A stretch of DNA of 64,000 nt, from the NCBI GenBank assembly GCA_035530395.1, contig DATKUX010000146.1:273-64272 (forward strand), given 5' to 3'. The DNA comes from Spirochaetia bacterium. Lineage in GTDB: Bacteria; Bacillota; Desulfotomaculia; Desulfotomaculales; JAJYZD01. The notes under the pieces were generated by a model. It was not told where the DNA came from, searched no databases, and worked only from the letters and a program-made list of their open reading frames with translations. The first letter of the stretch is position 1. Each line of letters starts with the position of its first letter. A program made the translations under genes and the position numbers. This document shows positions 23,339-58,720 of the stretch, piece after piece.

Positions 23339-24747
23339 CGCCCCCCCGGCCCCGGGGCGGGCATGATCATTATCACAAACGGCCCGTAACCATTGGGGGG
23401 CAGGGTTGTCCGCAACACGTAGGTATGGCCGGGCACCGCGTAAGGCAGATCGAACACCACATGTCCCTGCCCCAGCGGCTGGAGGGAACGGGGCGACCGG
23501 TAATAGCCGGCATAGCCGGGATCCCGGAAGGACACCGTCCTTACGACACCGTCCAAATCGAAGACCAGATGCTGGTCATACATATCCGGCGAGGCCAGCG
23601 GCCCGCTGTAAAGGGCCGGTTGAACGGCTACCGCCGCCGGTCCCGACAACTGGAGCCGGAAGACGTACACAATCCCGTAGTTGCCGCTGTCCTGGGCCCG
23701 GACATGATCGTCAAGGCCGTTTGCGGAGACGTCATTGACGAACATATCCGGTTCATAACCTGGGGCGGTGTCCGGACCACTATCACGGGCGAAATACTGC
23801 TGGGCCACCTGCACAGCTACGGGCTTCACCCCCGGTCCCGGGTCATACCTGATGGTCATGGTCCGGTCGGCCCCGGCAAAAATCCCCCGCTGGTGGAACG
23901 GAGTCGGCGAGGGCGCGCCCGGGGCGTCATCGGCCGGAGATATCACGTCCGATTTGTCGGCCAGCCGGTAGAAAGAGGTAAAGTCGGTCCCGTAACGGGT
24001 GATGAGGACCTCCACCCCGATCCCGCCGTCTGATACGGGCGTCACCAACTGACCGGTCTTTTGGTCGCGTAGGACGAAGTCGAACAGGCCCATGGCCCAG
24101 GCTCCCGGGCCCACGTTTTCCTGGTAGAGGTAGGAACCGCCCGGAGCCAGGTCGGCCAACCGGTGTTCCTCGTCGCCGTCCCCGCTGGCAAACCACTTTT
24201 CCACCAGGGTGGTGCCTTCCCGGCCGCCGAAGTCCGGTCCGGGGCCGGACCCCCCGGCAGCCGGCGCATAGTCCACCGGCCCCGCCAGGGTGCCGTTTCT
24301 GTCCGTGGTGCGCATTGTCGCCATACGCGTCCAAAAAAGGGAGACCGCCCGGCCGGTGTGGTTGACGACAGCCACACCTATGGTCGCCGGATCGTCCACC
24401 CGGGGGTTGCGCGGATCGAAAAGCAGGTTTTTATGGCTGTAAAGGAGCCGGAAACGGCCCGACATGACGTTATCCATTTTACACAGTATGCCGGGCCGGT
24501 TGGGAAACTCGGGGCTGTTGCTCAGCACCAGGGGCTGGGTGGAAAGATCCAGGGCCCGGCCCCGGCTGAGTGATACCGCCTGATCGAACACGCTCGCCGC
24601 TACCGTGAACTGACCGGGATCGGCCGGCGCGGGTACAGCGGTTCCCCACCAGCCGGCCAAAACGAGTAAAATTGCAAGAAGTCGCGTCCAACGGTGCAAG
24701 AAGAAGTCACCAAAAGTTGCCGCGCGGAAGCCCCTGGATTTATCCAT
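23329..24747 (-). CDS. Secreted hypothetical protein (no recognisable domain)
   Basis: 472 aa from ATG 24747. Signal-like WTRLLAILLVLAGWWGTAVPAPA. It overlaps the deacetylase start by 10 nt. The start codon lies inside the IscB element end hairpin. Confidence 0.6.
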   Translation of the reverse strand: MDKSRGFRAATFGDFFLHRWTRLLAILLVLAGWWGTAVPAPADPGQFTVAASVFDQAVSLSRGRALDLSTQPLVLSNSPEFPNRPGILCKMDNVMSGRFRLLYSHKNLLFDPRNPRVDDPATIGVAVVNHTGRAVSLFWTRMATMRTTDRNGTLAGPVDYAPAAGGSGPGPDFGGREGTTLVEKWFASGDGDEEHRLADLAPGGSYLYQENVGPGAWAMGLFDFVLRDQKTGQLVTPVSDGGIGVEVLITRYGTDFTSFYRLADKSDVISPADDAPGAPSPTPFHQRGIFAGADRTMTIRYDPGPGVKPVAVQVAQQYFARDSGPDTAPGYEPDMFVNDVSANGLDDHVRAQDSGNYGIVYVFRLQLSGPAAVAVQPALYSGPLASPDMYDQHLVFDLDGVVRTVSFRDPGYAGYYRSPRSLQPLGQGHVVFDLPYAVPGHTYVLRTTLPPNGYGPFVIMIMPAPGPGGRWL

Positions 24748-26584
24748 GGGGAGGAATCGCGGCACCGGCGTCAGCCGGCATCCTTTCGTGTTGCCAACCA
24801 TTGGCCCTTTGCCGCAACCGGCAATACTTTACCGGGATCCCCTGGCAGATCCGTTTCCCCGTGCCTTCCTTGATGTCGAAGTAGCCACTCTTTCTGACAG
24901 CCACCCGGCCGCGCCAACTGCCTGTGTACTTCCCTTTCGGGATATCGGCCGCCACCAGGTCGCCGGTCTTGAAACCGCAGTGGGTCTTCTTCCGTTCTCG
25001 CCACCGATAGGGAAATCCGTACTTGTCGATCCCGGCCATCTGCCGGTTGCCCCGACCGGTGGCCGTGTAGACCTCGACAAACGACACAGCCACCGTTTCC
25101 GGAAGGTTTTTCCCCACGCACGCGGCATCATAGTAGTGGGTCTTCGGTAGTTTTAACACCTGGGTACGATTGTACTTCGTCAGGCCACCGCTCCCGGTTT
25201 CCAGGGGCAACGCGAGAGCCGTGAGCCGTCGATAGAGCCCCCACCTGGTCGCGTTCATCATGGCCGCATCCTTCAGGGGCTGTTTCAACTCTTGGAGCGC
25301 CTTTGGCAGATTATCTGTCCGAATCTGGTCCAGGGCCTTGCCGGACGCCCGCAACTGTTCCAGCCACTCCTCCGGCTGCAGGTTGCCCTTATCATCATTG
25401 CACTTCTTGCAGGCGATGACCAAATTCGAGACCCGGTCCGTGCCCTTCGGCCCGTGGTCCGGGTTCCTTGGAACCACGTGCTCCACGTTCAGAACAGGGT
25501 CTCCGGAGGCACCCCGACAGTAAGCGCATAGGCGGGCAAATTTCTGCAGCAGGTACTCCCGCACCTCGTACCCGGCCAAGGTACCCTGCTGGTACTCGAC
25601 GCCGGAGATGTCCGGATTCTCCATCAGTTGGGTATCGAACCGGATCAACTCCATCGCGATCGCGGTGATGGGCAGGAGCTGGCGCATCTTACACACCCAG
25701 GACAAAGTCTCCTCCACCCGGGCCCGGAGCGAAGGCGGCAGCCACGCCTCCCGGAGACCGTTGTCAACGAACCGCCCGGCCTCATGGCACGGACGGCAGT
25801 ACCGGCTGCCGTGTTTCGCGTTCCGGCCACAGGCGGCACACTTCTCCGGGTGCCGATTGTTGAACCGGGGTTCCCGATACCGGGTCTTCCGGTTCCTGCG
25901 GCTCCGGCGTTGCTCCCGCCGGGCGTCCAGGTTTCCCTTGATGTCCGTCCGGTGTCGACATTCATAGCAGCCTATGGTTACTTTACCGTCCCGGACCACC
26001 GCACCCCCGGTTACTTTCGACCCGGGATCCAGCTTCATGTCGAGGGGTTGCAGAACACTGTCCTCAACCAAGCGGTCTTTCAGTCTGATCGTGAACGGAG
26101 CCATCTTGTGGACCACCGCCCGGCCGTGCTCCAAAAGTAGCCGGGCCCGTTTCTCGCTACATGGCATTAATGGTTTTTTGCGCTTGTCGAGTACATAAAC
26201 CACATGATTTCATCCTTTCTCTCCTTTCGGAGATCCCTTACGGGACCGGTTCCGCGCCGGGCTCGACACCCGGCATCTCTCCTCGCCGATGTTATCCCGG
26301 CTTTGCGCCGGCGGCACTGCTCGCATATAGTACGGTGATTACTGTGAATATGCTGTGTCCATTGTTACATCCACCCCTGCTCGCTGTTTAACCGCCGACG
26401 GCAGCTCCTGGAACTGGAGAAGCATCCCAGGGTGCCGGGACCGGAATAACGTAGTCTGCTCGCTCGGAGATCCCGGCAGACTTGGGCTGGTCATAGCGCC
26501 CTTGCGGGCTTTCTCGCCTAAATCCGGAGACTGTCGGAGGAGGACCTCCTCAAGCCCCCGGCTTTAGCCGTGGGGTCTATGACC
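24708..26584 (-). mobile_element. Non-autonomous IS200/IS605-type element carrying iscB + omega-RNA (copy 1)
   Basis: The ends were defined by comparison with copy 2. Similarity starts at CACCAAA (24708) and stops after ...GTGGGGTnnnTGAC (26583). Subterminal hairpins lie at 24731-24751 and 26556-26575. No tnpA. Confidence 0.7.
24740..26203 (-). CDS. iscB: IscB RNA-guided endonuclease (PLMP + split RuvC + bridge helix + HNH)
   Basis: 487 aa. Motifs: KKPLMPC (PLMP); LDPGSKVTG (RuvC-I); RREQRRSRRNRKTRYREPRFNNR (Arg-rich helix); IAMELIRFD (RuvC-II); CAYC...NVEHVVP...SNLVIACKKCNDDKGN (HNH); KTHYYDAA (RuvC-III). GTG start with an AGGAGAGAAAGGA RBS. Confidence 0.9.
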   Translation of the reverse strand: MVYVLDKRKKPLMPCSEKRARLLLEHGRAVVHKMAPFTIRLKDRLVEDSVLQPLDMKLDPGSKVTGGAVVRDGKVTIGCYECRHRTDIKGNLDARREQRRSRRNRKTRYREPRFNNRHPEKCAACGRNAKHGSRYCRPCHEAGRFVDNGLREAWLPPSLRARVEETLSWVCKMRQLLPITAIAMELIRFDTQLMENPDISGVEYQQGTLAGYEVREYLLQKFARLCAYCRGASGDPVLNVEHVVPRNPDHGPKGTDRVSNLVIACKKCNDDKGNLQPEEWLEQLRASGKALDQIRTDNLPKALQELKQPLKDAAMMNATRWGLYRRLTALALPLETGSGGLTKYNRTQVLKLPKTHYYDAACVGKNLPETVAVSFVEVYTATGRGNRQMAGIDKYGFPYRWRERKKTHCGFKTGDLVAADIPKGKYTGSWRGRVAVRKSGYFDIKEGTGKRICQGIPVKYCRLRQRANGWQHERMPADAGAAIPPHG

Positions 26585-26599
26585 AATCCTTTTTAGCCG
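26204..26599 (-). ncRNA. Candidate omega-RNA of IscB copy 1 (scaffold about 26204-26584, putative guide about 26584-26599)
   Basis: 380-nt non-coding gap directly 5' of iscB, dense in GC-rich hairpins. It is homologous to the region upstream of iscB-2, with compensatory changes. The extents are inferred, not measured. Confidence 0.65.
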
Positions 26600-27921
26600 G
26601 CAACGTTTTTAAGCAATTCCTTGATTTTCTTTTCCACCCGGAAGGGAATCAGGCCCATCCGTCCGGCGCGCCCCTGCCCGGCCAGCACCAGTTCCAGCAC
26701 GGCCCGACCCAGAAGCTCCGGGTCATGCCTCAGCAGGTCTCCTTCCCGCAGAAGGCGTCCGCCGACCACCCGCACGCCCAGCGCCTCCAGGGCGGCCAGG
26801 TCCACCTGCACCGGCGCGGATCCCTCTTCCCGGTAGCGCTCCAGCACCTTTCCCGGGGCCGGCTGCTGGTTCACCAGGACGCAGTTCACCTTCAACGGGG
26901 CGTGGGCCAATATGGCCCGGAAGTGGTCCGCCGCCGTGTAGCCGGCCGTTTCGCCCGGCTGGGTCATCACGTTCACCACATATATTTTGATGCCCGGGGC
27001 CTGGTTTATAGCCTCGGGAATCCCTTCCACCAGCAGGTTGGGGATGACGCTGGTGTACAGGCTGCCCGGGCCCAGCACTACCGCGTCAGCTTCCCGGATG
27101 GCCGCCAATACTTCTGCCGGCGGCCGGCAGGGAGCCGGTAACAGAAACACCCGCTCGACCGGCAGGGGACTCCGGGCAATGTGACACTGTCCCTTGAGGA
27201 CACTGCCATCGGCCAGGACGGCGCCCAGAACCACGTTGGCCAGGGTCACCGGCAGCACCCGGCCCCTAACCGCCAGTACCTTAGAGAGGCCCTGCACGGC
27301 CGCGAAAAAGTTACCGGTCACCTCGGTCAGGGCCGCCAGCATCAGGTTGCCCAGGCTGTGCCCAGCCAGTTCCCCTGTCCCGAAACGGTACTGCAAAACT
27401 TTTTCCATCAATGTTTCCTTGTCCGCCAGGGCGATCAGGCAATTCCGGATGTCCCCGGGGGGCAGGATACCCAGATCCTCGCGCAACCGGCCCGAACTAC
27501 CACCGTCATCGGCCACCGACACCACCGCCGTGATGTTGGCGGTGTACGCTTTAAGTCCCCTCAAAAGCACCGAGAGGCCGGTGCCGCCCCCGATCACCAC
27601 GATGCGCGGACCACGCTTCAGGTAGCGCCGGGCAAAGATGATGTCCACCAGGCGGCTTTGTTCCTCCGGCAGGAGAACCGTGACCACCGACCGGAAGGCC
27701 CGGTACAGGCCGGCCAGCAAAAGCGCGAAGCCGAGCAGGGCGAGCAGAGCCCCGGCTCCAAACCATTCCAGACTGTGGCGGCTCGGTCCCAGCACCGCCG
27801 CGGCGATCTGGGCGTTCTGGAAGAAGGAACCCGCCACCAGGAGTAACATCATCCCCGCCAGGGCCAGAATAAGCCACCTCTTCACCCGCAGGCCGGGATA
27901 GAGCCACTTCATTATTCTCAA
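26593..27921 (-). CDS. yvcK: Gluconeogenesis factor YvcK (CofD-like, UPF0052)
   Basis: GGGTGLSVLLRGLK motif. N-terminal TM segments. Neighbour of rapZ. Confidence 0.88.
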   Translation of the reverse strand: MRIMKWLYPGLRVKRWLILALAGMMLLLVAGSFFQNAQIAAAVLGPSRHSLEWFGAGALLALLGFALLLAGLYRAFRSVVTVLLPEEQSRLVDIIFARRYLKRGPRIVVIGGGTGLSVLLRGLKAYTANITAVVSVADDGGSSGRLREDLGILPPGDIRNCLIALADKETLMEKVLQYRFGTGELAGHSLGNLMLAALTEVTGNFFAAVQGLSKVLAVRGRVLPVTLANVVLGAVLADGSVLKGQCHIARSPLPVERVFLLPAPCRPPAEVLAAIREADAVVLGPGSLYTSVIPNLLVEGIPEAINQAPGIKIYVVNVMTQPGETAGYTAADHFRAILAHAPLKVNCVLVNQQPAPGKVLERYREEGSAPVQVDLAALEALGVRVVGGRLLREGDLLRHDPELLGRAVLELVLAGQGRAGRMGLIPFRVEKKIKELLKNVAG

Positions 27922-45622: not shown

Positions 45623-46861
45623 ATGCGCCAGGGCAAGGAAGGCCTCTTGCATTTAATTGAAAAAGACGTACTGCTAAAAATCATCGAAAACTTTACCAGG
45701 GCAACGGACATAACCATCGACATCAACGATGTCCAGGGCTACCCCTTGGTAGAACACGACTTCTTTCATGGTTTTTGTCACAGCATCCGCTCCACCCCGA
45801 AGGGATTGAAAAGGTGCATCCGGTCCAACGCCGAAGTGGGTTTCAAGACGGCCACCACCGGTGAAGTCTGCTATGGAACCTGCCATGCCGGCATCCTGCT
45901 GATGGCCGTACCGCTGGTTGTGGAGAACCGGTTCCTGGGCTCCATCACCTGCGGCCAGATGCGGCTGACCCCTCCCGGGGAGGGAGATGTCAGGAAGATG
46001 TTGCGCACCACCGCCGATCTGGGGCTGGACAGGGAGCACTTAACCGATACTTACCGGCAAATTCTGGTTCTGACGGCAGACAAGTGCCAGGCTGCTTCCC
46101 GCCTCATCGAGTACGTTTTGAATTACATTACCGACCTGATTTACCGGGCCAAGGTCCAGGAACAAAAAACCCGGGAAAAGCTGTTCAGTATGCGGGAAGC
46201 CAAAACCAGGGCCGAGCTGGAAAACAGCCTGCGCATGGCCCAGTTGAAAAACCTGCAGGCCCAGATTAAGCCACATTTTCTTTTCAACACCCTGAGCACC
46301 ATTACCAGCCTTGTGACCTTGCACGAAAACGACCGGGCCCTGGAAACCCTTTACGCCCTATCCAACCTGTTGCGGTACAACGTCCAGCATCCGGCGGAAC
46401 TGGTGCCGCTGCAACAGGAACTGAAATATGTGCGGAGCTATCTGACCATCCAGCAGACCCGCTTTGGCGACCGACTGCAAGCCAGGATCGATGTAGATGA
46501 AGCCTTGCTCGACCTGCCGGTGCCTTTCCTGAGCCTGCAGCCCCTGGTGGAAAACGCCTGTATCCACGGACTGGAACCGAAGGAGGGAACGGGCCACCTG
46601 CTGATTACCGCCCGGTCCGGGGATGGTCTCGCGGTGATTGAGGTGGTGGACGACGGAATCGGCATTTCACCCGCCAACATTTCGGCCCTGCGCCGCGGTC
46701 TGAGACACCCGGCCGGACCGGAAGCTCTGGAACGCGGCATCGGCCTCTACAACGTGGATGAGAGGCTCCGGCTCCACTTCGGCCCGGAATTCGGCCTGGT
46801 TCTGGCGAGCCGGCCGGGCGAAACCCGGGTGAGCGTAATGCTCCCCCGGAATGAATTGTGA
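45623..46861 (+). CDS. Cytoplasmic sensor histidine kinase with PocR sensory domain (YesM-like)
   Basis: PocR domain (FCHSIRSTPKGLKRCIRSN...CHAGIL), His_kinase region (QIKPHFLFNTL) and HATPase. No TM segments. Confidence 0.82.
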   Translation: MRQGKEGLLHLIEKDVLLKIIENFTRATDITIDINDVQGYPLVEHDFFHGFCHSIRSTPKGLKRCIRSNAEVGFKTATTGEVCYGTCHAGILLMAVPLVVENRFLGSITCGQMRLTPPGEGDVRKMLRTTADLGLDREHLTDTYRQILVLTADKCQAASRLIEYVLNYITDLIYRAKVQEQKTREKLFSMREAKTRAELENSLRMAQLKNLQAQIKPHFLFNTLSTITSLVTLHENDRALETLYALSNLLRYNVQHPAELVPLQQELKYVRSYLTIQQTRFGDRLQARIDVDEALLDLPVPFLSLQPLVENACIHGLEPKEGTGHLLITARSGDGLAVIEVVDDGIGISPANISALRRGLRHPAGPEALERGIGLYNVDERLRLHFGPEFGLVLASRPGETRVSVMLPRNEL

Positions 46862-47952
46862 GGGATTATCCGGTGTACAAGATACTCCTGGTGGAAGACG
46901 AGGAACTGGAACGCCAATTCCTGCGCCATCTGGTGCAAACCTGCGGATGCCCCGTAGAGGTCGCCGGTGAAGCCAAAAGCGGCAAGGAAGCGGTGGAGAT
47001 GGCCGCGGATGTCCACCCGGACATTATCCTGATGGACATTCGCATGCCCGGCTTGGACGGATTAGAGGCTACCCGGCTGATCAAGGCGCGTCAGCCCGCC
47101 GTGGAAGTGATCATTCTCACCGCCCACGGCACCTTCTCCTACTCCCAACAGGCCATCAAAAGCAAGGTGGCTGACTACCTTTTGAAACCGGTCCAGCCGG
47201 AAGAACTAGCCGAAGCCCTGGACCGGGTCATCGCCGGACTGGAGGCGCAGACGCCGGGGGTGGAGCGTTTTCTGGCCACTGCCCCGCCTTTAAACGCGGC
47301 CGCCACCGACCTGGTCAAGGCCATCCGTTATTGTGATCCCGCTGCCGCCCGCCAAGCTGTGGCGGGACTGCTTTCAGGTTTTTTAAGGGAAACGGAGCGC
47401 CCGGAAAAGGAACAACTGGCCGCCCTGGCCTTCGAAATGCTGGTCACGGCGGGTCAGGGTCTGCTGGCCGGCGGCGCGGGCGAGGTGGCGCTGTCCTCGC
47501 AACAAAGCGATCTGGCCCGGGAAATAAGGGACATCGGCACCGTCTCCGGGTTGACCGCCTGGGCGGAAAGGATGTATACCGCCCATATCCGCTGGATCCG
47601 GGATCACCGCGCTACCGGCGACCAGGCGGTCATCGGCCAGGTCAAAGAATACCTGCGCCGGCACTACCGCGAGGAGATAACCCTGGCCCGGGCAGCCGGC
47701 TCCGTCCATCTCAACCCGGCCTACCTGAGCCGCCTGTTCAAACAAAAGAGCGGCCAAAGCTTTGTGGCGTACTTGACCCTGTTACGTTTGGAGAATGCCA
47801 AGGAACTGCTGCTCTCCTCGGACCGGACCATCGACCAGATTGCGGCCGACGTGGGATTCAGGAACAACAGTTACTTCACTACCGTATTCCGGAAGCGGGA
47901 AGGCATCACGCCTTCCGAATTCCGCTCCCGCCCCTTGTCGGAGCGGACCTAA
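46858..47952 (+). CDS. Response regulator, CheY receiver + AraC-type HTH (YesN-like)
   Basis: ILLVEDEELE...DIILMDIRMPGLDGLE receiver and a C-terminal AraC HTH (IDQIAADVGFRNNSYFTTVFRKREGITPSEFR). Confidence 0.9.
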   Translation: MRDYPVYKILLVEDEELERQFLRHLVQTCGCPVEVAGEAKSGKEAVEMAADVHPDIILMDIRMPGLDGLEATRLIKARQPAVEVIILTAHGTFSYSQQAIKSKVADYLLKPVQPEELAEALDRVIAGLEAQTPGVERFLATAPPLNAAATDLVKAIRYCDPAAARQAVAGLLSGFLRETERPEKEQLAALAFEMLVTAGQGLLAGGAGEVALSSQQSDLAREIRDIGTVSGLTAWAERMYTAHIRWIRDHRATGDQAVIGQVKEYLRRHYREEITLARAAGSVHLNPAYLSRLFKQKSGQSFVAYLTLLRLENAKELLLSSDRTIDQIAADVGFRNNSYFTTVFRKREGITPSEFRSRPLSERT

Positions 47953-55153: not shown

Positions 55154-55272
55154 GTCCCCCTTGCGATTAACCTGGCTTTTTTGTGATCTCCCGTGGCGCA
55201 AAACGACTACGTGTTCAAGCATCGTCGGGTCGCTCCACCCAGACCTTTTGACCCACCTCCCTGGGATAATAC

Positions 55273-57209
55273 CACCAAAGATAGCCGGGCGCGGGAGCCC
55301 CTGCATTTATGCATGGGGAGGAGCGCCCGGTATGCCCCCTTTCCTTTTTGGAATCCATTTGGGAATGCCGTGCCCCTTAAGAGTCTTCACAATCGTACCG
55401 ATAATCGACCGGCTTTCGGACAAACGATTCCTGTACGCCCGTTCTTCCAGGGTCAACTTCTTCCAGTCCTTGTCCGCGATCATGTTTGCTTCCAGATGTG
55501 ATACCTCGAAGGTTCCCCGCTCGCGCAATCCGGTGATATAACCGTGAATTCTTATGCCGTCATTGACAAAAGAGACTTTATCGTACAACTGAAAACCATG
55601 CACCCTTCTTACGGCGGAAGTCCTCTCGCATGTTTTGCCTTTCTTGTTCTCGTTCGAGAAGCGGTGAAAAGGTCTGCGGGCTTTTAAACGCCTTTCGATC
55701 ACATGTTCCGCCGGTAGATCAAAATCTAACCCGCCTGCGGCTATCGTCATCGCGTCGATGATCTGCGCCTTTGGTAAACGAATCTTCAACCTGTAATATT
55801 TCGTCTGATAGCCGAAGGTCGCTTCAACCGGCACGCCAAGTTTCTTTAACTCCTGCCAGAGTGCCCATTTGTAACTTTGAGTCAGGGCACTGTACCGAAA
55901 AGCTCTGTGTTTGACTGCTTCTTTCTGGATATTCGGGAATCCGAATTCTTCTGCCGTTCGAGAACCCTTCTTTAAATTACACGTCTCACAGGCGATTACC
56001 AGGTTGGACACCTTGTCGGTACCGCCCCGGGACTTGGGAATAACGTGCTCGATCTCCAGAACCGGATCGCCGCTCTTTCCCTTGCAGTAAACGCATTGGT
56101 GGCCGTGTTTGTGTAGAAGGTACTCCTTGACCTCGTACCCGAAAAGGGCACCCTGCTGATATTCCGTGCCCTGGACCTCCGACCTGGCCATCTTCTGGGT
56201 ATCAAACGCGGTAAGCTCAACCCGGATCTTCGTTATGGGCATAATCCCGACCAGCTTCTTGACCTCCGCCAGGATCGCGTCAACCTTGTTCCGCAATGTG
56301 GGGTTGAGAATCTTATCGGTATCGTGCTTACCTTTCTCGCCGGCACGTTCATGCTGGCATTTCCGACAGACCGCGGCCCGACCGTTCTCAACCTTTTTGA
56401 GGCTCTTTCCGCCGTTCCTGCGTTTGGCCTTTTTCCAGACCTTCGGCGTGTGGTTCACGCCGCAGACCGAGCAGAACGACTTCGGCCGGTTTTGAAAACG
56501 GGACTTCCGGTACCCGGTATTACGGCCCCGGCGCTCTCTCCGGGCGGCGGCCCGCCGCTTAAGCTGCGCCGAGATGTCAGTCCGGAGCAGGATCTCCTTG
56601 GCATAGACGATCTCACATGTTTGCTCTCCCGGCTTGTGCTGCTCTACTGCTACCGGTGTATCGCTGGAACCCGGATCGATTCCGAGTGTCATTTCCACCG
56701 GTACAAATGCCGTACTTTCGTACGTCAACTGGATGGTGAACGGGTTGTAGCACATAATGACAGCCTTGCCGTCTTTGAGGAGATGCCGGACCCGGCCTGG
56801 CCGCCGCGTCGGCGCCAACCGCTTACCCGACTTCGATATTACGAAGATCTGTTGCTGTTCCGACTTTTTCTCGCTCTGCTTCATCAGAAGAACACCTTCC
56901 GTGGTTCCCCCCTGAGGGGGGGATAATGCGGGCCAGGGGCACCCGTTCAATTCCCCGCCTGTGTTCCGCCGGCTTGCCCGGATACGCCGGGCCGTCCCGA
57001 GGTTGACCGCCCCGTCCCCCGAGGGGCTTTTACAGAGCCTCCAGAATGTTCTGCCAGACTGGCTTTTCATCCGGCTGTCTGCTAACCGGTGGAACGCCCG
57101 GTCGCCCGGGCTGGCTGTCGCTCACGGAGCTTCCGCTCCCGCATCAATCCGAGAACATGTCAGGGTGGTTACTGACAAGCCCCCGCATTTATGCGTGGGG
57201 TGATTGACA
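55273..57209 (-). mobile_element. Non-autonomous IS200/IS605-type element carrying iscB + omega-RNA (copy 2)
   Basis: The same terminal architecture as copy 1. It starts at CACCAAA (55273), has hairpins at 55298-55318 and 57181-57200, and ends ...GTGGGGTnnnTGAC (57208). No tnpA. Confidence 0.7.
55307..56884 (-). CDS. iscB: IscB RNA-guided endonuclease, divergent paralog
   Basis: From ATG 56884: MKQSEKKSEQQQIFVISKSGKRLAPT (PLMP-like). Further motifs: GIDPGSS (RuvC-I); RRAAARRERRGRNTGYRKSRFQNR; IRVELTAFD (RuvC-II); CVYC...EIEHVIP...SNLVIACETCNLKKGS (HNH); KAQIIDAM (RuvC-III, with Q where copy 1 has H). The ORF-track start at 57070 reads through the omega-RNA region. Confidence 0.88.
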   Translation of the reverse strand: MKQSEKKSEQQQIFVISKSGKRLAPTRRPGRVRHLLKDGKAVIMCYNPFTIQLTYESTAFVPVEMTLGIDPGSSDTPVAVEQHKPGEQTCEIVYAKEILLRTDISAQLKRRAAARRERRGRNTGYRKSRFQNRPKSFCSVCGVNHTPKVWKKAKRRNGGKSLKKVENGRAAVCRKCQHERAGEKGKHDTDKILNPTLRNKVDAILAEVKKLVGIMPITKIRVELTAFDTQKMARSEVQGTEYQQGALFGYEVKEYLLHKHGHQCVYCKGKSGDPVLEIEHVIPKSRGGTDKVSNLVIACETCNLKKGSRTAEEFGFPNIQKEAVKHRAFRYSALTQSYKWALWQELKKLGVPVEATFGYQTKYYRLKIRLPKAQIIDAMTIAAGGLDFDLPAEHVIERRLKARRPFHRFSNENKKGKTCERTSAVRRVHGFQLYDKVSFVNDGIRIHGYITGLRERGTFEVSHLEANMIADKDWKKLTLEERAYRNRLSESRSIIGTIVKTLKGHGIPKWIPKRKGGIPGAPPHA

Positions 57210-57224
57210 GGTCGAAGAAGCACC
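56885..57224 (-). ncRNA. Candidate omega-RNA of IscB copy 2 (scaffold about 56885-57208, putative guide about 57209-57224)
   Basis: Structured 325-nt region 5' of iscB-2. Its 5' module aligns with copy 1 (ACCCCACG-hairpin-GGGGGCTTG-hairpin-TCTCGGATT...CCAGCCC). The extents are inferred. Confidence 0.65.
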
Positions 57225-58720
57225 TACTCTGCGGAAGTCTGTGGTTGGGCCCACCAGTCGCCTTTTTTAGGTGCAAGCTCATCCTCGGCGCAGGTCCAGG
57301 CGGAACCGCTCCGCCAGGCCTCCCTTATTTCGATGAGATGGCTGAAAAGAAATGCCAAAAAGGCGTTTTCCCTGTCGAACCCAGTATAGCCGGCAATTTT
57401 CGCGAGAACGTAGGTAAGGACGGCCGGATCCTGTTCCCGGTCTATTACCTGCCAGGTTTCCTCCGTCAGTACAACATGCTTTTCGGAGTCCGCAGCAGCT
57501 ATCAAGGCGTGCAAGGTCGTCCCGTCCCAGTTCTTTCCGTCGCAGGCTATTGCTTTCCGGAAGAGCTCGACCTCCTGTTCGGGGTAGGGAAGCTCAAAGG
57601 TGCCAGGTGTGACGTTGGTATCTCCAGTCCTTTGGGGCGCAACGCGCTCCGCCTGCAGTTTGTGTAATATGTTCCGGACTCTTTCTACTGGAACGCCGGC
57701 CATGCCGGCTATTTTCCGGGAAGCCTCTTCCTCCTCAAAGTAAGCACGGGTCCGGTAATACCGGGGTACGAACTCGGCCGGCAGAAAACCGACGGCCCGG
57801 GCCGGTCCGGTAGGTCCCGAATCAAAGGCACCCAGAGCATGAGCGATGGACAATACTTGTTCCAACTCCCACCGGGGGCCGTCGGAGTCCAGGCACGCCA
57901 TCCGCACCAGATCGTACAAGTTGCCCGTACCGTCAAGAATATGGAGGCATTCCCCCAATGCCCCAATGGTCCCGGGGGCATTTTGCTTGAGGCGGTCTTT
58001 CGCCCATGAGTTGCACAGGGTTATGTTTTTTGACACCAGCAGGCGATAAATGGCTGCCTGATCGCCCCTCTGTTCCTCGCTCGTTTTTTGGACCAGTCCG
58101 CTGTCCCTTTGAGCGAGCACGTCCCAGAGCCTTTCCGGATCCAGGAGCAATGGTATATCGAAGGGTTTTCCCTTGATCCCGGTGAGCCACCGGAGGGAAT
58201 GCGCCCAGTCCCGCGCAGCCAGGTTGCCGGTGGCGCAGGCCCGACCGGGAAATAGGTTTTCCGCCAGGGTGATAATGCACCAGATGAAGTCGTGATAAGG
58301 GCAGGACTGGGTCTTTTCGTGAAATACCCTGACCGGCCTCCGGCCCCGGAAGAGGGTATCGGACAAATCTTCGTCGTCCTGCCCTTTATGCTTCGGTCCA
58401 TATATTCTCCGCCGGTAGAAGCCGATATCGCGGTATAACGTGAAGTCTTCGCCCCTCTGCCTTGTCCATCCGTCCCCTACAATGGACAAAAAACGTCCGA
58501 ATTCGTTCCGGCCTTCGATACGGCGGGTGAGAAAAAACCGGTAATAGCCCGACTTGTTCTCCGCGTCCAACCTCTGGAGGGGTAGGGGAAATGCCCGGGC
58601 CAGTGCCAGAGCCTCATCGTAGAAGCCATTCCATTCCCCGGGGTCGATTTCCAAGGGCAGGATGTCCAGACCCAGATAGACTCCCATTTCAAATTCCCTC
58701 CCCACTAACGAAATTTCCAT
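57224..58720 (-). CDS. Hypothetical protein, 498 aa, no recognisable domain
   Basis: Long uninterrupted ORF with normal composition. It is divergent from an XRE regulator, and its stop is 15 nt from the IscB-2 element end. Confidence 0.6.
   Translation of the reverse strand: MEISLVGREFEMGVYLGLDILPLEIDPGEWNGFYDEALALARAFPLPLQRLDAENKSGYYRFFLTRRIEGRNEFGRFLSIVGDGWTRQRGEDFTLYRDIGFYRRRIYGPKHKGQDDEDLSDTLFRGRRPVRVFHEKTQSCPYHDFIWCIITLAENLFPGRACATGNLAARDWAHSLRWLTGIKGKPFDIPLLLDPERLWDVLAQRDSGLVQKTSEEQRGDQAAIYRLLVSKNITLCNSWAKDRLKQNAPGTIGALGECLHILDGTGNLYDLVRMACLDSDGPRWELEQVLSIAHALGAFDSGPTGPARAVGFLPAEFVPRYYRTRAYFEEEEASRKIAGMAGVPVERVRNILHKLQAERVAPQRTGDTNVTPGTFELPYPEQEVELFRKAIACDGKNWDGTTLHALIAAADSEKHVVLTEETWQVIDREQDPAVLTYVLAKIAGYTGFDRENAFLAFLFSHLIEIREAWRSGSAWTCAEDELAPKKGDWWAQPQTSAE

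Follow-up and report, generated by a model that had tools for sequence, protein, structure and literature searches.

Introduction

The described elements closest to the locus analysed here are the ISC transposons, the iscB systems characterised as TnpA-linked nucleases and the insertion sequence IS608. ISC elements are defined as non-autonomous and, in the part of the defining paper drawn on here, have 5'-GTCA termini, subterminal hairpins and GTGR or ATGA targets, with insertion into GTGR read as falling between GT and GR (Kapitonov et al., 2016, PMC4810608). About 98.5% of iscB genes are without a nearby tnpA, about 1.5% being near one, and the omega-RNA of iscB is bounded by the right end (RE) of the element (Meers 2023, bioRxiv 10.1101/2023.03.14.532601). 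The left end (LE) of IS608 (ISHp608) consists of TTAC, a 19-nt linker, the guide tetranucleotide GL (AAAG) and a 22-nt palindrome, IPL; palindrome lengths, loops and the extrahelical T have been published, as have the contacts T-4:A-34, C-3:G-35 and T-4:A+17, with AAAG as GL and TTAC as CL (He et al., 2011, PMC3201880; Morero et al., 2018, PMC5934647).

Here we analyse two iscB copies found in a 64-kb stretch of DNA (hereafter the window), in each of which a nested hairpin coincides with the 3' end of the gene. We consider it very probable that each of these hairpins is the left end of a non-autonomous ISC element of the IS200/IS605 family, lying on the plus strand of the window and antisense to iscB.

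Results

Two divergent iscB genes end in nested hairpins

Both iscB genes of the window lie on the minus strand and their products share 36% amino-acid identity. RRXRR and HNH domains (Pfam) were found in both proteins, and the catalytic and invariant residues are kept in both. A protein 100% identical to IscB of element 1 carries the annotation RNA-guided endonuclease IscB; for the 525-aa form of copy 2, and for P0121, look-up gave no match. The open reading frame listing and the deposited gene call stretch iscB of element 2 to position 57070, over the omega-RNA. Each gene terminates in a nested hairpin whose apical loop holds the TAA stop codon, and at its opposite end each element has a near-identical inner hairpin, which lies within the HEARO/omega-RNA (Table 1); in element 1 it is the first inner hairpin of that RNA. 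In both copies, then, IscB (RRXRR/RuvC and HNH) has an upstream omega-RNA that overlaps the right end, and subterminal imperfect palindromes stand at both ends in the same orientation, without terminal inverted repeats. By the convention for TnpA, the hairpin at the 3' end of iscB is the left end, comprising IPL and GL and antisense to the gene, and the hairpin inside the omega-RNA is the right end.

Table 1. Features of the two iscB elements; positions are those of the window
Feature	Position	Strand	Details
Element 1 (W1), non-autonomous ISC (IscB + omega-RNA)	24711..26583	-	1873 bp; ends from W1/L206/L207/L208 alignment
Target/TAM, element 1	24707..24710	+	TCAC on +; GTGA on iscB sense strand; outside element
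Nested left-end hairpin, element 1	24718..24764	+	covariance model 52.5 bits; covariation; guide/target rule
Outer stem, element 1	24718-24724 / 24758-24764	+	TGCCGCG / CGCGGCA
GL, element 1	24727-24730		GAAG
IPL, element 1	24731-24751		21-nt imperfect palindrome, CCCCTGGAT-TT-ATCCA-T-GGGG, extrahelical T
iscB, element 1	24740..26203	-	487 aa, RRXRR/RuvC + HNH (Pfam); TAA 24740-24742 (TTA on +)
omega-RNA (HEARO, RF02033), element 1	26272..26583	-	111.9 bits against gathering score 83, E 3e-22
Right end, element 1	26551..26583	+	GR CAAG 26551-26554; IPR 26555-26575 (CCCCCGGCTTTAGCCGTGGGG); 8-nt tail closed by CR TGAC 26580-26583
Element 2 (W2), divergent non-autonomous ISC	55276..57208	-	1933 bp
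Target/TAM, element 2	55272..55275	+	CCAC on +; GTGG on iscB sense strand
Nested left-end hairpin, element 2	55285..55330	+	covariance model 42.6 bits
Outer stem, element 2	55285-55292 / 55323-55330		
GL, element 2	55294-55297		GGAG
IPL, element 2	55298-55318		CCCCTGCAT-TT-ATGCA-T-GGGG
iscB, element 2	55307..56884	-	525 aa from ATG 56884; TAA 55307-55309 inside hairpin loop
HEARO-like omega-RNA, divergent, element 2	56945..57208	-	40.3 bits, E 3.6e-6, below gathering score
Right end, element 2	within omega-RNA		GR CAAG 57176-57179; IPR 57180-57200; CR TGAC 57205-57208

At the nucleotide level, the two elements resemble each other only in the HNH region, over 50 nt at the 3' end (84%) and over 26 nt at the 5' hairpin. 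The outer stems of the two copies are wholly unlike in sequence, with their pairing kept, and a single compensatory change, from G-C to C-G, is seen in the inner stem. Exactly four copies of the motif CCCCAYGNNTAAANNCRGGGGC are present in the 64 kb, at both ends of both elements and always on the minus strand, compared with a chance expectation of 0.06; four copies were reached in none of 100 shuffles. On folding, nested hairpins formed on both strands, with modest z-scores of -2 to -3. The inner hairpin also resembles the palindrome of IS608, which we take to have the same CCCC/GGGG foot, T-rich loop closed by a T-A pair and extrahelical T.

An initial annotation of this DNA had described stems that differ between the copies while staying complementary, a stop codon in the loop of both and a hairpin of like form at the other end of each element, and the comparisons above bear it out on all of these points. 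Its string for copy 1 describes the hairpin correctly apart from the omission of one C (the true string is TGCCGCG-C-GGAAG), and the position at which it began the hairpin, 24708, falls in the element terminus/target instead. Similarity between the copies begins between (T/C)CAC and CAAA; measured from the inner foot this point is 20-22 nt away, and from the outer stem 7-9 nt, and not about 25 nt outside the hairpin.

The nested hairpin covaries across 60 IscB loci

Regular-expression extraction of hairpins from MFE folds proved too noisy and was replaced by a covariance model of the nested hairpin (R1), the 5' hairpins of relatives being located by pattern. The model matches the nested hairpin at the 3' end of iscB in 60 IscB loci, in every case on the iscB strand, and at the 5' ends of omega-RNAs it matches the inner hairpin only. 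It can be seen that pairing is retained across the 60 loci, with 75.7% of cells paired compared with 58.4% in shuffled sets; double-change cells numbered 140 compared with 50 in shuffles, 0/500 shuffles equalled the observed value and slid controls were much lower. The 5' and 3' hairpins are more alike within an element (0.72) than between elements (0.64; 0/5000 shuffles).

Within the window, the covariance model search found no solo hairpins or mini-elements. A model match at 46828-46901 (+), considered as a solo end, had an E value of 0.07 and was treated as chance, there being no IscB homology nearby and the sequence being coding-like.

Guide tetranucleotides predict the flanking target

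The four bases beside the hairpin foot predicted the flanking tetranucleotide in 52 of the 60 loci, compared with 32 +/- 2.4 after shuffling (0/5000). Five target types are represented in this set: ATGA, GTGA, GTGG, ATGG and TTGA. The predicted target was absent from the span searched in the remaining eight loci, two of which fit given an insertion or a longer linker. The left ends of those metagenomic tnpA-tnpB and TnpB-only elements that were inspected by hand also fit the rule, with ATAA, GTAA and GTAG. In the window, GAAG pairs with TCAC in element 1 and GGAG with CCAC in element 2, and CAAG with TGAC at both right ends, the GR/CR pairs of element 1 again fitting the IS608 code. This pairing rule is the one published for the TnpA guide and cleavage site of IS608.

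For element 2, CCAC was predicted from its GL and located 22 nt from the hairpin foot. For element 1 the IS608 code predicts TCAC from the guide tetranucleotide, and the TCAC concerned is the last position common to four related elements whose contexts differ; left-end cleavage is predicted to fall 3' of it. On the iscB strand the TAMs predicted from DNA alone are GTGA (copy 1) and GTGG (copy 2), and GL-based prediction of targets offers a cheap way to read the TAMs of uncharacterised IscB nucleases.

Element boundaries and a syntenic empty site

The sense strand of element 1 reads 5'-GTCA...CTTTTG-3', with a 2-nt GT ambiguity at the ends. Four elements (68-84% amino-acid identity) found in four different contexts have in common an end at GTCA and an end at which GTGA follows; their flanks are unrelated before GTCA and beyond GTGA, and no flank repeat, and hence no target-site duplication, is seen. 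Insertion between GT and GR and insertion upstream of GTGR leave an identical empty-site sequence, and the GR/CR pairing favours GTCA as the true end. The predicted empty joint would join ...AAAAAGGATTG to GTGACTTCTTC..., and the predicted RE-LE circle junction would join ...TCTATGAC to CAAAAGTTGCC....

A syntenic locus (L084/L085) consists of cofD, 16 nt and the ortholog of the downstream gene, and carries neither an element nor a match to the covariance model. This relative is fairly distant (61% amino-acid identity, neighbouring gene), and places the insertion within a spacer of about 20 nt and not to the nucleotide. The four related copies and the syntenic empty site agree with the element boundary that the initial annotation had put forward. 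Each element was found in a single genomic context, the same insertion being present in two assemblies of one study, so that recent mobility would be conjecture.

Related elements with the same hairpins encode TnpA

Neither element encodes TnpA, as had been noted at the outset: no tnpA-like open reading frame was found in the 64-kb window with an HUH...Y regular expression or by tblastn. The same searches, with an approximate IS608 TnpA sequence as the tblastn query, found no TnpA within 4 kb of 79 of 80 relatives. The sole tblastn match, at L071:10-306, was to a truncated TnpA that lies some 1.2 kb upstream of the iscB of that locus and probably belongs to a neighbouring element. Since most iscB genes are without a nearby tnpA and ISC elements are non-autonomous by definition, this absence is no puzzle.

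In metagenomes, tnpA-tnpB elements are bounded by the same hairpin pair. One of these, L145, has the order LE, tnpA, tnpB, RE; its TnpA is closest, among structures, to ISHp608 TnpA (E 1e-58), and its IPR is identical to that of element 1. As tnpA and tnpB lie on the opposite strand in metagenomic elements with the same hairpins, the convention set by TnpA makes the hairpin at the 3' end of iscB a left end on the plus strand of the window. The initial proposal of an IS200/IS605 subterminal hairpin for a Y1 TnpA is thus supported by the 60-locus covariation, the guide/target code, the tnpA-tnpB elements and the boundaries.

The absence of tnpA from the window and the single context of each copy would also fit hairpins that are end relics of an immobilised, domesticated iscB, unused by TnpA, with only IscB and the omega-RNA still functional, as would the score of the copy 2 omega-RNA below the Rfam gathering threshold. 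However, palindromes, CR/GR pairs and flank-matching guide tetranucleotides are intact at both ends of both elements, the catalytic and invariant residues of both proteins are kept, and close relatives have exact ends in different contexts. We therefore regard relic ends as unlikely.

Stop codon position, strand preference and C-terminal tails

The hairpin might instead act at the level of the iscB mRNA, by intrinsic termination, by stabilising the 3' end or by regulating translation through concealment of the stop codon, its likeness to a transposon end being secondary. That both strands fold about equally would agree with this, as would a short T run after the outer stem in GTGR-type elements and the stop codon lying in the loop throughout the close clade W1, L206, L207 and L208. 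When all 60 loci were considered, however, the stop codon preceded the hairpin in 30, fell in its loop in 10 and followed it in 20; a stop codon in the loop is thus a trait of one clade only, 50 of the 60 loci having it elsewhere. No terminator-like site of the Rho-independent kind was called at either hairpin, and the tails are A-rich in most relatives, those of the ATGA type being A-rich and not T-rich. Elements with tnpA/tnpB are bounded by the same structure, which lies there on the strand that does not encode these genes, and a role in RNA leaves the guide/target covariation unexplained. Sense A.C pairs outnumber G.T pairs by 76 to 26, a count uncorrected for relatedness and alignment artefacts, which favours folding of the antisense strand. 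Taken as the main function, a role in RNA is thus very improbable; the hairpin may have an additional RNA-level role in iscB mRNA.

That the palindrome is a by-product of selection for a conserved IscB C-terminal peptide (..PPHG/PPHA) is scarcely credible: 9 of 120 IscB homologs do end in PPHA and several more have similar tails, but the conserved core stops at GWQYEK, past which the DNA hairpin is retained even though length, sequence and reading frame of the tails vary; the hairpin is entirely downstream of the stop codon in half of the 60 loci, and the 3' arms, although non-coding, co-vary with the 5' arms. Because the stop codon may stand before, inside or after the hairpin, the hairpin is not a coding artefact.

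Discussion

A model for the two elements as TnpA-dependent transposons

Each left end reads, in order, flanking target/TAM (TCAC or CCAC), a 20-22 nt linker, GL (GAAG or GGAG) and a 21-nt palindrome, which has a TT loop and an extrahelical T; the outer stem is formed between part of the linker and bases on the 3' side of the palindrome. We infer that an IS608-like Y1 HUH TnpA, supplied in trans, would bind the left and right hairpins of these two copies on single-stranded DNA, pairing of GL with the TAM and of GR with TGAC setting the positions of both cleavages. The top strand would then leave as a circle and re-enter on the 3' side of a tetranucleotide that matches. With the same TAM, and with the 5' part of the omega-RNA, which derives from the flank, as its guide, IscB would cut the empty donor joint, and recombination following the cut would restore the element. 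The iscB open reading frame runs into the left end, and as a result the last residues of the protein and its stop codon (in element 1, AAIPPHG and TAA) are encoded by the hairpin.

In the outer stem the TAM-proximal linker is paired to the sequence that follows the palindrome on its 3' side, so that the guide tetranucleotide is enclosed in an internal loop of about 6/6 nt, and it is found in IscB, TnpB-only and tnpA-tnpB elements alike. To our knowledge it has no place in the textbook model of IS608, with which we contrast it. A conserved, co-varying part of the left end in an IS608-like group could conceivably pre-organise or gate the contact between guide and TAM, for example by limiting extended target pairing or by coupling the contact to iscB translation through the end, but we hold this idea only tentatively.

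Comparison with known systems

The analysis determines exactly where two IscB elements end, which is of value for annotation, and corrects two gene calls, one that starts the downstream gene inside the hairpin and one that stretches the start of iscB over the omega-RNA.

PATE and REP elements are palindrome-associated non-coding derivatives mobilised by Y1 transposases. The same hairpins as those described here bound non-coding mini-elements of about 330 nt in metagenomes (L104 and L098), whereas the elements of the window are full-length and protein-coding.

With IS608, our elements share the order of parts, a linker of similar length (20-22 compared with 19 nt), a palindrome of 21-22 nt and the guide/cleavage-site pairing rule, and the metagenomic relatives L149 and L118 have exactly GL AAAG with target TTAC. 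They differ from it in their cargo, which is iscB and an omega-RNA on the opposite strand and not tnpA-tnpB, and in their target, which is TCAC or CCAC and not TTAC.

As in the system of Meers 2023 (bioRxiv 10.1101/2023.03.14.532601), the right end bounds the upstream omega-RNA, the TAM would be common to TnpA and the nuclease, and the elements are non-autonomous, presumably trans-mobilised, accompanied by PATE-like derivatives and co-oriented directly downstream of a host gene. Here, however, the TAM contains G/C (GTGA/GTGG on the iscB strand) and is not AT-rich, and the copies are known from sequence alone.

The likeness to the ISC transposons of Kapitonov, Makarova & Koonin (2016, PMC4810608), again as regards the part of that paper drawn on here, extends to the single iscB, 5'-GTCA, a GTGR (or ATGA) insertion site that is not duplicated, an imperfect subterminal hairpin at each end, the absence of tnpA and termini in common with TnpB elements of the other strand. 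Nothing essential differs, although both copies add new sequences, whose source is an uncultured bacterium, and the nested outer stem and the guide/target code are not spelled out in that part of the text. We conclude that both copies are non-autonomous ISC (IscB) elements of the IS200/IS605 family, of the already well-described kind reported by Kapitonov 2016 and Meers 2023, and that they leave the current picture of ISC elements unchanged.

Nested hairpins at the ends of the two iscB elements

Both iscB copies end in nested hairpins of the kind described in the initial annotation, with the TAA stop codon in the apical loop in each case. For copy 1 the hairpin itself stands, but one C had been left out of its string and the quoted start, 24708, falls in the terminus. 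Motif CCCCAYGNNTAAANNCRGGGGC has exactly four sites in the window (0.06 expected), at both ends of each element and always on the minus strand; at the 5' ends it makes up the omega-RNA's first inner hairpin. Apart from the HNH region, nucleotide likeness between the two elements is confined to their final 50 nt (84%) and a 26-nt stretch at the 5' hairpin, and the IscB proteins share only 36% amino-acid identity.

Features of the two iscB elements (window positions)
Feature	Position	Strand	Details
Element 1	24711-26583	minus	2-nt GT ambiguity at ends
iscB copy 1	24740-26203	minus	487 aa; RRXRR/RuvC and HNH domains
HEARO/omega-RNA (RF02033), upstream of iscB copy 1	26272-26583		full; 111.9 bits
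cofD-like gene	26593-27921	minus	stop 9 nt upstream of element 1 (edge 26584-26595)
Element 2	55276-57208	minus	2-nt GT ambiguity at ends
iscB copy 2	55307-56884	minus	525 aa from plausible ATG; RRXRR/RuvC and HNH domains
HEARO/omega-RNA, upstream of iscB copy 2	56945-57208		divergent; 40.3 bits
498-aa ORF	57224-58720	minus	stop 15 nt upstream of element 2 (edge 57209-57226)

The copy 1 protein is held in public databases as an RNA-guided endonuclease IscB from a Spirochaetia MAG, and an ENA metagenome contig matches the window. The mechanical ORF of copy 2 continues to 57070, and the deposited gene call (587 aa) stretches it over the omega-RNA (56885-57070); IscB homology begins at the ATG at 56884 (MKQSEKK...). 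At only 40 bits against HEARO, the copy 2 omega-RNA has a divergent scaffold.

Copy 1 was aligned with three relatives (68-84% amino-acid identity) from unrelated contexts; all four start exactly at GTCATAGA and end exactly after GTGA. The comparison with empty sites proposed in the initial annotation could be made with L084/L085, a syntenic locus from another metagenome where rapZ, cofD, the downstream gene's ortholog (61% amino-acid identity) and whiA follow in the same order. Here only 16 nt separate cofD from the ortholog and the left-end model finds no match; without element 1 the window would have a similar spacer, of 20 nt. The element boundaries in the table follow from the shared ends and this empty site.

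Both elements lie just 3' of the stop codons of co-oriented host genes, so that the omega-RNA guide overlaps the 3' end of the host gene; this placement fits the orientation bias that Meers et al. report, where the omega-RNA is driven by transcriptional read-through. For the gene that follows element 1, the called start falls inside the hairpin (24765, 478 aa) and the ORF list has ATG 24801. The true start is probably TTG 24699, 11 nt past the end of the element, from which a signal-peptide-like N-terminus can be read; the ribosome-binding region of this gene may now come from the element end (..TTGGTGA). The window's own metagenome sample contains a second IscB element (L206; ENA ERZ27256808 k141_1002282), with a protein 78% identical to copy 1, a different context (after an HD-domain gene) and the same start GTCATAGA and target GTGA, so the family has several members in that community.

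Covariation across IscB loci

We assembled 80 IscB loci from contigs taken one genome per species and built a covariance model from the 3' ends of 20 of them. In the searched loci it matched over its full length 60 times, in each case at the 3' end of iscB and on that gene's strand; the 5' ends of 13 omega-RNAs matched with the inner hairpin only, and no other matches appeared. Pairing reached 75.7%, against 58.4% after shuffling (0/500 shuffles attained the observed value), double-change cells numbered 140 against 50, and slid-partner controls fell much lower than the true pairs. This is strong covariation, with most compensatory changes affecting the outer stem's four core pairs and the inner stem's upper four. 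Mismatches were mostly A.C on the iscB strand, equivalent to G.T on the complement (76 against 26, kinship among loci being ignored), an excess suggesting that the plus strand is the one that folds.

In the Halomonas/Vreelandella group (L019, L024, L026, L029 and L041) the 5' hairpin reads CCTCTCCCTGAAGGGAGAGG and the 3' hairpin TCCCGGCACTGAAAGTACCGGG, only 45-59% identical, unlike most elements; a TnpA of looser specificity may act there, or the two ends may differ in how they are read. The left-end model also gave a weak full-length hit at 46828-46901 on the plus strand (14.3 bits, E 0.07, ending ..CCTGGTGG), which is probably due to chance, since the region looks like ordinary coding sequence and has no IscB homology close by.

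A coding artefact was rejected as an explanation of the hairpin: the conserved IscB core stops at GWQYEK, and the tails that follow vary in frame and sequence as well as in length. Of the 60 loci, 30 have the stop codon upstream of the hairpin, 10 have it in the loop and 20 have it downstream; the loop position is conserved only within the close clade of copy 1. A terminator was likewise rejected, as no terminator-like site was called at either window hairpin; an A-rich tail is present in most relatives. We conclude that the hairpin is a real feature, rightly interpreted in the initial annotation.

The guide tetranucleotide and its target

In IS608 (ISHp608) the protein does not read the cleavage sites; a guide tetranucleotide on the 5' side of each hairpin foot does so: GL AAAG with CL TTAC and GR GAAT with CR TCAA, through canonical pairs T-4:A-34, C-3:G-35 and T-4:A+17 and with linkers of 19 nt in the left end (LE) and 10 nt in the right end (RE) (PMC3597680, PMC3201880, PMC5934647). 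With the rule recast for the iscB strand, a flanking tetranucleotide 12-27 nt away is predicted from the four bases that follow the foot of the hairpin. The predicted tetranucleotide was found in 52/60 IscB loci; shuffling guides among loci gave 32 +/- 2.4 fits, and 0/5000 shuffles reached 52. Five guide/target classes co-vary (iscB strand): TNTC with ATGA, CNTC with GTGA, CTCC with GTGG, TNCC with ATGG and ATTC with TTGA. Copy 1 pairs CTTC with GTGA (plus strand, GL GAAG and flanking target, or TAM, TCAC) and copy 2 CTCC with GTGG (GL GGAG, TAM CCAC). The other end also fits, with GR CAAG and CR TGAC, which places the true terminus at |GTCA.

The predicted target is missing at L011:1976-2038, L017:5394-5458, L022:1552-1613, L033:5334-5396, L062:4689-4751 and L082:5265-5328, which may be decaying ends or off-target insertions; L011 has GTCC beside ATGA, and its close relative L021 TTTC beside ATGA.

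Relatives that carry tnpA

Metagenome contigs scanned for the inner-hairpin pattern yielded mostly non-IscB elements. Of 80 loci, 28 have tnpB and 9 have tnpA, and with few exceptions these genes run antisense to the CCCCAYG reading. Upstream of tnpA, at a distance of 60-110 nt, L145, L149 and L118 carry the CAT..CAG variant, the form found at the 3' end of iscB. The CAC..CGG variant, the omega-RNA form, is located past the 3' end of tnpB in seven (L145 among them) of the nine loci with tnpA. The hairpin described in the initial annotation is therefore the LE in the TnpA convention, in agreement with Meers et al., where the iscB omega-RNA is bounded by the RE. The outer stem also occurs in the true left ends of these metagenome loci (for example L145, L149 and L151), and the left ends inspected by hand obey the guide/target rule, L149 and L118 being exactly like IS608 (GL AAAG, target TTAC).

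L145:1-1995 contains a complete 1.66-kb IS605-type element, in the order TTAT, LE, tnpA (Y1_Tnp, 137 aa), tnpB (370 aa) and RE ...GTCAC. It shares an identical RE palindrome with element 1, and its TnpA is closest to the ISHp608 TnpA structures (E 1e-58); a transposase of this type is a candidate helper for IscB elements of this kind. Neither window element encodes TnpA, as originally noted: there is no tnpA in the 64-kb window, nor near 79/80 IscB relatives. With tnpA near only ~1.5% of iscB genes (Meers et al.), its absence is the norm for such elements and not an anomaly.

Two non-coding mini-elements of ~330-340 nt (L104:628-975 and L098:10912-11255) have the same 5' hairpin and a nested 3' hairpin, identical in L104 to the copy 1 inner hairpin, with the predicted targets GTGA and ATGA, respectively. 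They are PATE-like (palindrome-associated, non-coding) derivatives, with a roughly omega-RNA-sized interior and no iscB.

Comparison with known systems

The conserved outer stem of the LE and the accuracy of the LE guide as a predictor of the TAM over IscB diversity are not spelled out in the available text of published descriptions; both are refinements inside a known mechanism. ISC transposons as defined by Kapitonov, Makarova and Koonin (PMC4810608) are non-autonomous, have 5'-GTCA termini, insert at GT|GR or ATGA, carry imperfect hairpins in a subterminal position and share their termini with TnpB elements of antisense orientation. All features of the window elements match that description, and they match the TnpA/IscB model of Meers et al. 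too. The original reading of the hairpins as IS200/IS605 subterminal hairpins is supported.
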